Shown here piece after piece: positions 8,305 through 9,049 of a stretch of 64,000 nt of DNA. Numbering within the stretch: the stretch's first letter is position 1; every line of letters starts with the position of its first letter. The notes below the pieces were generated by a model. It saw only the letters and a list, made by a program, of their open reading frames with translations. It had not been told where the DNA came from and searched no databases. The DNA lies in assembly GCF_013167455.1 (NCBI RefSeq), contig NZ_CP038328.1. One strand, written 5' to 3'. The DNA is from Escherichia coli O157:H7 (lineage in GTDB: Bacteria > Pseudomonadota > Gammaproteobacteria > Enterobacterales > Enterobacteriaceae). The translations under genes were made by a program, and so were the position numbers.

Positions 8305-8316
8305 GACAAGTTATAT

Positions 8317-8350
8317 AGATGGCGGCATCAATTTGTCGCCATCTGTATTT
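8317..8350. terminator. Putative bidirectional stem-loop terminator between convergent asmA and the antitoxin gene
   Basis: AGATGGCG (8317-8324) pairs with CGCCATCT (8337-8344) around a 12-nt loop, followed by a T-rich tract. Confidence 0.4.
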
Positions 8351-8356
8351 ATAGCA

Positions 8357-8647
8357 CTAAGCAGCATGTGGATATTGAACTTCAATACGTTGAATATGTA
8401 GTCCTGCATGAGCCATCATGGTGATCAATTTATCGATACTAAAGATCTGGATTTTACCTCTGGCAAGTTCAGAGATGCGAGGTTGAGTGACCCCTAAAGC
8501 AGAAGCTGCCTGAGCCTGGCTAAACCCTTGTTGTTCAATCCAGTTATTAATGATCGTTACAAGCTCGGCACGGATCCGCATATTTTCCGCTTGTTCAGGG
8601 GTGTCACTCACCGCATCCCACACACTATCAAAGGTTTCAATTTTCAT
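8357..8647 (-). CDS. HTH (XRE-like) antitoxin, HigA-2-like
   Basis: MKIETFDSVWDAVSDTPEQAENMRIRAELVTIINNWIEQQGFSQAQAASALGVTQPRISELARGKIQIF... contains a helix-turn-helix; ATG at 8645-8647 overlaps the toxin stop by 11 nt; AGGAG RBS about 8 nt upstream. Confidence 0.8.
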   Translation of the reverse strand: MKIETFDSVWDAVSDTPEQAENMRIRAELVTIINNWIEQQGFSQAQAASALGVTQPRISELARGKIQIFSIDKLITMMAHAGLHIQRIEVQYPHAA

Positions 8648-8975
8648 TTTTCCGCTCCTGAACAAGTTCTTTATAGCGTCGTTTGGCTAAATCAATATCC
8701 GATTGACTGGTAGTCTGTGTTTTCTTTTGAAAACAATGCAATACGTAAACCGCTTCTTCAAATTTTGCGACATACATGACGCGATAGATCCCATCAGCAT
8801 CGCGAGTACGAATCTCTCGCACACCAGGGCCGATAGTTGAAAAAGGTTTCCAGTCGTATGGGTTTAACCCTTGTTGGATCCTGTCGAGTTGATAGCCAAT
8901 TTCCTGTCGAGACGATTCTGGAAATGCGCGTAAATCGTCAAGACTGGTATCAAGAAAAGCCAGCTTTTTTCTCAT
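8637..8975 (-). CDS. Type II toxin, RelE/ParE superfamily, Gp49-like/HigB-2-like
   Basis: 112 aa; C-terminal pattern GPGVREIRTRDADGIYRVMYVAKFEEAVYVLHCFQKKTQTTSQSDIDLAKRRYKEL fits the Gp49-like/HigB-2 toxin signature; toxin-first operon order with an overlapping HTH antitoxin. Confidence 0.75.
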   Translation of the reverse strand: MRKKLAFLDTSLDDLRAFPESSRQEIGYQLDRIQQGLNPYDWKPFSTIGPGVREIRTRDADGIYRVMYVAKFEEAVYVLHCFQKKTQTTSQSDIDLAKRRYKELVQERKNEN

Positions 8976-9015
8976 TACTCCATCCTTAGATTATACTAAA
9001 TTTTGTATAAATCAA
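8976..9015 (-). promoter_or_regulatory. Putative sigma70 promoter and RBS of the toxin-antitoxin operon
   Basis: On the minus strand, TTGATT-like -35 (plus 9010-9015), TATAAT -10 (plus 8990-8995) and AGGATGGAG RBS before the toxin ATG; spacer about 14 bp, which is short. Confidence 0.4.
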
Positions 9016-9043
9016 ATGCGCAGTTTGAACCTGCGCATTTGAT
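9011..9043. promoter_or_regulatory. Perfect 13-bp inverted repeat: candidate TA operator and/or yegH terminator
   Basis: ATCAAATGCGCAG (9011-9023) / CTGCGCATTTGAT (9031-9043) around a 7-nt spacer; lies directly downstream of the yegH stop and overlaps the putative -35 of the TA promoter. Confidence 0.5.
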
Positions 9044-9049
9044 GTTTTA

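Follow-up and report, generated by a model that had tools for sequence, protein, structure and literature searches.

A probable chromosomal type II toxin-antitoxin module of the Gp49/HTH_37 (HigBA-like) kind between asmA and yegH in Escherichia coli O157:H7

The gp49/gp48 pair of phage N15 supplied the founding member of the Pfam Gp49 family (PMC3581621), and type II toxin-antitoxin pairs in which a Gp49 toxin is encoded ahead of an HTH_37 antitoxin are known from Tn3-family transposons such as Tn4662a (PMC7157771). In Acinetobacter baumannii, the RNase HigB is neutralised by HigA, which also represses the operon with the toxin as co-repressor (PMC5906591). HigB1 of Mycobacterium tuberculosis cleaves A-site codons on the ribosome (PMC9098466). 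The present analysis concerns a pair of this kind in Escherichia coli O157:H7 (NCBI RefSeq assembly GCF_013167455.1, contig NZ_CP038328.1), located between asmA and yegH at positions 8305-9049 of a stretch of 64,000 nucleotides, hereafter the window, where an earlier note on this DNA had placed a HigB-2/HigA-2-like toxin-antitoxin cassette. With a probability of roughly three in four, the region is an intact chromosomal type II toxin-antitoxin module, formed by a Gp49 (HigB-like) toxin and an HTH_37 (HigA-like) antitoxin. RefSeq already lists the gene pair as a type II toxin-antitoxin system in hundreds of genomes, and the pair is an ordinary member of a well-studied family; it matters little as a discovery and has some practical value.

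The cassette comprises the whole intergenic space of 745 bp between the convergent genes asmA and yegH, and both of its genes are encoded on the minus strand. The toxin gene comes first (8637-8975; 112 amino acids; WP_001227701.1) and overlaps by 11 nt (8637-8647) the gene of the antitoxin, a helix-turn-helix (HTH) protein (8357-8647; 96 amino acids; WP_000687872.1), which bears out the two-gene unit, its overlap and its position as the earlier note had described them. The overlap depends on the antitoxin start chosen: the ATG at 8647, which is also the RefSeq call, gives the 96 residues and the 11 nt, and the list of open reading frames (ORFs) places the start further upstream, at the TTG of 8665. 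At every locus examined, including 13 others located on plasmids, on conjugative elements and in one prophage, the toxin gene comes first and is paired with an HTH_37 gene. The pair has the reverse-order operon layout of HigBA-type systems, that is, the toxin first, an overlapping antitoxin of the HTH-Xre type and conservation of the two as a pair. With respect to the mobile relatives, the phage N15 pair shows the same gene order, but its identity is 33% and its context is that of a prophage-plasmid. The Tn3-family and plasmid modules have both the domain pair and the gene order in common with the E. coli cassette, although the latter contains no transposase, resolvase or res site and is fixed between two core genes. 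In plasmid pDC3000B of Pseudomonas syringae, a 63%-identical toxin lies beside a recombinase gene and is preceded by the same palindrome that is found upstream of the E. coli toxin, described below.

As the earlier note had expected of a Gp49-like RelE/ParE toxin, the 112-residue protein matches Pfam Gp49 (PF05973) along the complete model (positions 1-90 of 90; E=1.5e-30, 105.6 bits), which places it in the Gp49/HigB-like branch of the RelE/ParE superfamily. Its name in RefSeq, given by the Prokaryotic Genome Annotation Pipeline (PGAP), is 'type II toxin-antitoxin system RelE/ParE family toxin', and every homologue listed carries a precomputed PF05973 assignment. The family is large, with 3,934 clusters at 50% identity (E≤1e-3), 7,812 word-index matches and 637 plasmid records with relatives. 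An AlphaFold2 model of the toxin, built from 30 homologues (predicted local distance difference test, pLDDT, 92; predicted template modelling score, pTM, 0.83), predicts strands at residues 4-7, 42-44, 52-58, 64-71 and 75-84 and a helix at 91-111. In the model, a beta-sheet is accompanied by two short helices and by a long one at the C terminus, and the protein is thus predicted to adopt a RelE/BECR fold with a long C-terminal helix. In a Foldseek comparison with the PDB, the top matches were M. tuberculosis HigB1 in its free and ribosome-bound forms (7awk and 7nbu_Y; template modelling (TM) score 0.67-0.69), followed by Thermus thermophilus RelE, Streptococcus pneumoniae HigB, ParE2 (5cw7, 5czf) and Vibrio cholerae HigB2 (TM 0.59). 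Searches of the PDB by sequence detected only S. pneumoniae HigB, via a C-terminal LHxFxKKTQ.T motif; M. tuberculosis HigB1 and V. cholerae HigB2 were found neither by phmmer nor by profile search (E≤10), and the fold search alone linked them to the toxin.

Each of these structurally solved systems resembles the E. coli pair in a different way. HigB1-HigA1 of M. tuberculosis, part of a toxin-antitoxin-chaperone (TAC) system (7AWK, 7NBU), is likewise a Gp49-family, toxin-first pair with an Xre-HTH antitoxin and provides the best structural match (TM ~0.68), but the two toxins are only about 20% identical, with no significant sequence match, and TAC needs a SecB-like chaperone gene, which the cassette does not have. 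The S. pneumoniae HigBA pair (6AF3, 6AF4) is the sole solved structure detectable by sequence (profile E=0.0015) and shares with the toxin the C-terminal LHxFxK(K/R)TQKT motif, including the catalytic lysine, whereas the similarity is confined to the C-terminal 40 residues and the fold alignment is poorer (TM ~0.5). Finally, V. cholerae HigB-2/HigA-2 (5JA8, 8A0X) has a RelE fold with a long C-terminal helix and the toxin-first order (TM ~0.59), but HigB-2 is assigned to Pfam PF06296 (PMC11980606) rather than to Gp49, and shows no detectable sequence similarity to the E. coli toxin even with a profile. Since the toxin gave no PF06296 match even at E≤10, the label HigB-2/HigA-2-like that the earlier note had given to the pair is right only at the level of fold and superfamily, the nearest structure being that of M. 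tuberculosis HigB1.

The residues E54, R56, R65, H80, F82, K84 and K85 of the toxin are invariant in the 30 homologues. Three of them, R65, F82 and K84, align with R73, F90 and K92 of S. pneumoniae HigB, which have in turn been equated with R77, F93 and K95 of M. tuberculosis HigB1 and with R61 and R81 of RelE (Mansour et al., PMC9098466). When E54 and R56 are added by spacing (only), the Glu, Arg, Arg, Phe and Lys of the toxin appear to match the catalytic pocket, corresponding to E66, R68, R77, F93 and K95 of HigB1. By analogy with these relatives, the toxin would be a small RelE-fold endoribonuclease that enters the ribosomal A site and cuts translated mRNA, leading to growth arrest; the ribosome-dependent mRNase activity of V. 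cholerae HigB-2 is likewise predicted for it, and the codon preference of HigB1 (CCA) cannot be assumed to carry over. The superfamily also includes poisons of DNA gyrase and ParE2 is among the fold matches, from which a ParE-like action on gyrase instead of on mRNA might be proposed. Such an activity is very improbable, as the top structural matches (HigB1, RelE and HigB) are mRNases, the Pfam family is Gp49 and not ParE, and the toxin conserves the basic and acidic residues with which HigB1 and S. pneumoniae HigB cleave RNA.

The second protein, an HTH_37/Xre-type DNA-binding protein named 'helix-turn-helix domain-containing protein' by PGAP, agrees with the HTH antitoxin that had been expected at this position: it matches HTH_37 (PF13744) over residues 13-86 with E=5e-22 and HTH_3 with E=5e-7, and its similarity extends to a structural-genomics protein in the PDB (2a6c_A, E=3e-14). 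A motif in its HTH region, QPR..L..G.I..F..D.L, is invariant in 14 cognate antitoxins. In the plasmid-borne HigBA system of A. baumannii (pAB120), which also consists of a Gp49-domain toxin followed by an HTH antitoxin and in which the RNase is neutralised by complex formation, the antitoxin controls its own operon, and this autorepression is the working model adopted here for the E. coli pair, although pAB120 HigBA belongs to a different subfamily and is carried by a plasmid. According to this model, the antitoxin would neutralise the toxin by binding it as an HTH dimer and, alone or in complex with the toxin, may sit on a TATAC-N8-GTATA site and switch its own operon off.

A candidate for this site is found directly upstream of the toxin gene, where the palindrome TTATACAAAATTTAGTATAA (8991-9010; core TATAC-N8-GTATA at 8992-9009) overlaps TATAAT, the -10 hexamer of the presumed toxin-antitoxin promoter (8990-8995, minus strand). 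When stretches of 45-100 nt ahead of the toxin start were compared among 14 loci with otherwise unrelated surroundings, the sole conserved element, present in all 14, was the palindrome TATAC(A/G)-N6-(T/C)GTATA (consensus TATACAAAATTTTGTATA), whose 3' end precedes the annotated start codon of the toxin by 8 to 19 nt. Its half-sites vary symmetrically (TATACA..TGTATA, TATACG..CGTATA and TATATC..GATATA), which is the pattern that a dimeric HTH operator would show, and a -10-like hexamer occupies the same place, the right half-site, in most homologues. TATAC-N8-GTATA has a single match in the window, against a chance expectation of 0.03. Taken together with its conservation, the palindrome at 8991-9010 is probably the operator bound by the antitoxin. 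A different palindrome, that of the hairpin at 9011-9043, had been proposed in the earlier note as the antitoxin site; this candidate was rejected because none of the homologous modules outside E. coli is preceded by it, and the conserved site is the one adjacent to it. No paper containing the operator sequence was found in a literature search, and its delimitation to 8991-9010 makes it a precise, testable operator.

A weak promoter, the -10 element of which is embedded in this 18-20-bp palindrome, would drive both genes on the minus strand. The claim that the cassette has its own promoter and ribosome-binding site holds for the TATAAT hexamer and for the Shine-Dalgarno-like motifs AAGGA and GGAG (8987-8978) ahead of the toxin ATG, but a scan with the sigma-70 consensus called no complete promoter on the coding (minus) strand, because the -35 position, occupied by an arm of the 9011-9043 hairpin, is poor. 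An internal promoter for the antitoxin was also considered and was rejected, as the same scan called no minus-strand consensus site.

The spacing between the -10 element and the toxin start presents a further distinctive feature. A start codon located 6 nt after the -10 hexamer is a layout typical of leaderless mRNAs. In eight of the 14 homologous modules (loci L013, L015, L017-L021 and L023), the operator-embedded -10 is followed by the toxin start codon at exactly this distance of 6 nt, which would imply that toxin-antitoxin mRNAs of the Gp49/HTH_37 subfamily are leaderless. In the E. coli cassette this position is taken by the ATG of a mini-ORF of two codons, ATG GAG TAA (8975-8983, minus strand), whose stop codon overlaps the toxin start (TAATG; 8983-8973). 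The mini-ORF may stand in for a leaderless start or be what remains of one, any function of it being speculative. It can be proposed, tentatively, that the sampled Gp49/HTH_37 members share across phyla an operator containing the -10, a toxin start 6 nt further on and a leaderless toxin mRNA, and that the E. coli mini-ORF makes the toxin dependent on re-initiation and in this way throttled relative to the antitoxin; the throttling or coupling of toxin translation by the mini-ORF is speculation. If true, the re-initiation design would address how toxin-first operons keep the antitoxin in excess. Whether the Tn3-borne modules carry their own promoter has been described as an open question (PMC7157771), on which the leaderless or mini-ORF design also bears. 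The phylum-spanning operator with its leaderless-like layout is, together with the series of decay alleles described below, only mildly new.

The cassette is bracketed by two hairpins, and both the stem-loop and the perfect 13-bp palindrome reported in the earlier note are real by folding energy. The first one (8313-8348) is located just past the stop codons of asmA and of the antitoxin gene and has a folding energy of -23.7 kcal/mol on the plus strand (z = -6.6) and of -14.3 kcal/mol on the minus strand; it is probably the asmA terminator and possibly acts in both directions. The second one (9011-9043), with perfect 13-bp arms, is located directly past the yegH stop, reaches -19.6 kcal/mol on one strand (z = -5.6) and -20.6 kcal/mol on the other (z = -6.8) and is kept in other E. 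coli alleles of the cassette. Given that it is not conserved outside E. coli, it is better read as a probable terminator or insulator after yegH than as an operator. The two hairpins would therefore serve to terminate or insulate the convergent transcripts of asmA and yegH. A scan of positions 8000-9400 against Rfam yielded no matches.

In terms of distribution, 910 of the 5426 complete E. coli genomes (approximately one in six) carry the cassette, 792 of them with at least 80% of it, and many O157:H7 chromosomes carry 8305-9049 with 100% identity. The left-hand neighbour, asmA (6451-8304, plus strand; NCBIfam NF008091, 1061 bits; RefSeq annotation), and the right-hand one, yegH (9050-10633, minus strand), which according to RefSeq, and to the Pfam domains on yegH of other assemblies, encodes a membrane protein of the TerC/CBS/CorC family, are both core genes. 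In K-12 they are neighbours without the pair, in line with the earlier note, but they do not abut: a spacer of 273 bp, made of a repetitive extragenic palindromic (REP) element and unique sequence, lies between them, and this K-12-type spacer is present at a coverage of at least 80% in 3819 genomes. The alignment with K-12 and other E. coli junctions set the boundaries of the cassette at the two stop codons, where homology to K-12 ends exactly. Because the 745-bp cassette and the K-12 spacer are unrelated in sequence and the homology breaks at precisely these points, the difference is an allelic replacement and not an insertion into the K-12 arrangement. The strain-variable insertion of the earlier note is thus strain-variable indeed, but it replaces an unrelated spacer, is old and has decayed repeatedly. 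The possibility that the K-12 spacer (L002, 5487-5759) is a scar of the cassette was also examined: it shows colinear exact matches of 11 and 10 nt to the asmA-proximal end and encodes LHIQNI where the C terminus of the antitoxin reads LHIQRI, but 59 of 500 shuffled sequences reached at least the same score, and the resemblance is not significant.

The G+C content of the cassette (~0.43, against 0.51-0.55 in the flanks, from the GC profile), its absence from K-12 and the location on plasmids of its closest relatives outside E. coli could all be taken to indicate a recent insertion specific to O157:H7. This scarcely deserves credence and is already contradicted by the cassettes that many non-O157 strains and Shigella dysenteriae carry at the same site. 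When lineages are compared, differences amount to 1.6-5% in the cassette and to 1.3-6.7% in the adjacent 300 nt of asmA and yegH, so that the 95-98.4% identity of the cassette equals the 93-98.7% of its neighbours; having changed to the same extent as its flanks, the cassette has therefore long resided in E. coli, and the existence of several independent decay alleles speaks for the same. From these comparisons, the cassette appears to be an old polymorphism that has repeatedly decayed: long resident in part of the E. coli population, it would have stayed intact in O157:H7 and have been inactivated independently in other lineages.

The decay alleles are graded. In AR216.2b (L005, NZ_CP043942.1), a deletion of 23 bp (8879-8901) falls exactly between direct repeats of the form TCCTGTCGAG(T/A)(T/C)GAT, which are located 23 bp apart in the toxin gene (8879-8916; repeat family D1), and frameshifts the toxin; about 50 genomes fall within the corresponding band of 90-95% identity, and slippage at this deletion hot-spot appears to be a recurrent way of losing the toxin. 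In another allele, represented by 451 index blocks in many assemblies (P0045, L024-L026), the toxin carries a stop codon at Q83 together with R56P and several other substitutions, and the antitoxin is usually intact, being cut to 50 amino acids in L024. Two alleles are hybrids of the cassette and the K-12-type spacer: in E. coli CUVET21-1780 (L003, 2000-2391), the 5' half of the toxin gene, the promoter and the hairpin are replaced, the cassette up to window position 8806 being joined to spacer positions 64-273, and yegH is frameshifted, and in E. coli WB61 (L004, 1500-1850), only 104 nt of the cassette are left, up to window position 8408 and including the 8313-8348 hairpin, joined to spacer positions 82-258, and a deletion extends into yegH, the 3' end of which is missing. 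In L004, cassette and spacer meet at TGAATATG, a short string that they share. Finally, the allele of L016 (NZ_CP083887.1) combines the substitution W42C, of an invariant Trp of the toxin, with a 5-nt ACTCA duplication that frameshifts the HTH of the antitoxin. Across these alleles it is the toxin that is hit first (Q83stop/R56P, 23-bp deletion, 5' truncation and W42C), the antitoxin usually being intact, which is the pattern expected of an addiction module and suggests that the toxin is harmful when unopposed. As an old presence/absence polymorphism with graded decay alleles at a fixed site of the core genome, the locus is a clean example that could be used to study how chromosomal toxin-antitoxin modules disappear.

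Several points have to be set against an intact, active module. Neither protein reaches the curated cut-off of the corresponding NCBIfam model, with 27 bits against 62.85 for the toxin (TIGR02683, upstrm_HI1419 toxin) and 16.3 bits against 47.7 for the antitoxin (TIGR02607, HigA antidote). The correspondence of E54-x-R56 to E66-x-R68 of HigB1 is drawn from spacing, without a significant alignment, and the sigma-70 scan left the promoter incomplete. In addition, HigB2 and HigB3 of M. tuberculosis, which are members of the Gp49 family, were non-toxic when tested (PMC9098466), and Gp49 membership is therefore no guarantee of activity. In the searchable literature, no experiment or study on the asmA-yegH toxin-antitoxin locus was found. 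From some of these points it might be argued that the pair is intact in sequence but attenuated, its toxin no longer inhibitory, and survives either as a neutral relic or simply in the role of an autoregulated HTH regulator, a reading for which the existence of non-toxic Gp49 members, the poor -35 position and the loss of toxin function in many E. coli lineages without obvious cost can be invoked, together with the frameshifted antitoxin that L016 carries beside a full-length toxin (with W42C, though). Attenuation is nevertheless unlikely. No segment of the intact alleles is better conserved than the toxin, whose DNA identity of 99.4-99.7% exceeds those of the antitoxin and of the flanks; the O157 allele keeps all the residues that are invariant in the family, and the bias of disabling mutations towards the toxin points to harm by an unopposed toxin.

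The relatives of the toxin are spread over a wide range of hosts and elements. Homologues with 55-65% identity occur in Alpha-, Beta- and Gammaproteobacteria, in Acidithiobacillus and in Rhodococcus, as well as in prophages of Mycobacterium abscessus (58%). The nearest ones outside E. coli come from Salmonella (79-82% identity), one in a locus with tra-like genes and another beside IncFII repA. The module, with its nearest relatives on plasmids, is probably selfish DNA that was acquired horizontally. Three E. coli records labelled as plasmids match the cassette with at least 99% identity, among them L016 ('plasmid unnamed3', 43 kb), which carries asmA and dcd and is therefore probably a chromosomal fragment labelled as a plasmid; these records were consequently discarded as evidence of mobility. 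The occurrence of relatives in prophages (PHROG matches and those of M. abscessus), the variation of the locus between strains and the discussion of RelE/ParE-superfamily modules as defence toxins (PMC11980606) raise the question of whether the main role of the pair is anti-phage abortive infection, in which infection would free the toxin and shut down translation. It is quite unlikely that this is its main role: PADLOC-DB v2 gave marginal matches only (NsnC, E=1.4e-3, and PDC-M64C, E=6e-5, for the antitoxin), the cassette stands alone between core genes and not in a defence island, and selection is unlikely to be strong, given that the toxin has been lost repeatedly.

A few observations concern the surroundings of the module or those of its relatives. 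In the Salmonella enterica subsp. diarizonae locus (L007, 4001-6504), two different Gp49/HTH pairs are found within 2.5 kb, adjoining a TacA-like antitoxin/acetyltransferase pair and TraW/TraX-like genes, the whole constituting a toxin-antitoxin cluster in a tra-like locus. Elsewhere in the window, dgcE (yegE), upstream of udk at approximately 4305-4797, is a frameshifted pseudogene according to the annotation of an identical O157:H7 chromosome. On the other side of the module, the intergenic region between yegH and wza (10550-11000) is very AT-rich, with a G+C content of 0.31-0.37, and contains an ORF of 49 amino acids (10834-10983, minus strand) that RefSeq annotates as a hypothetical protein.

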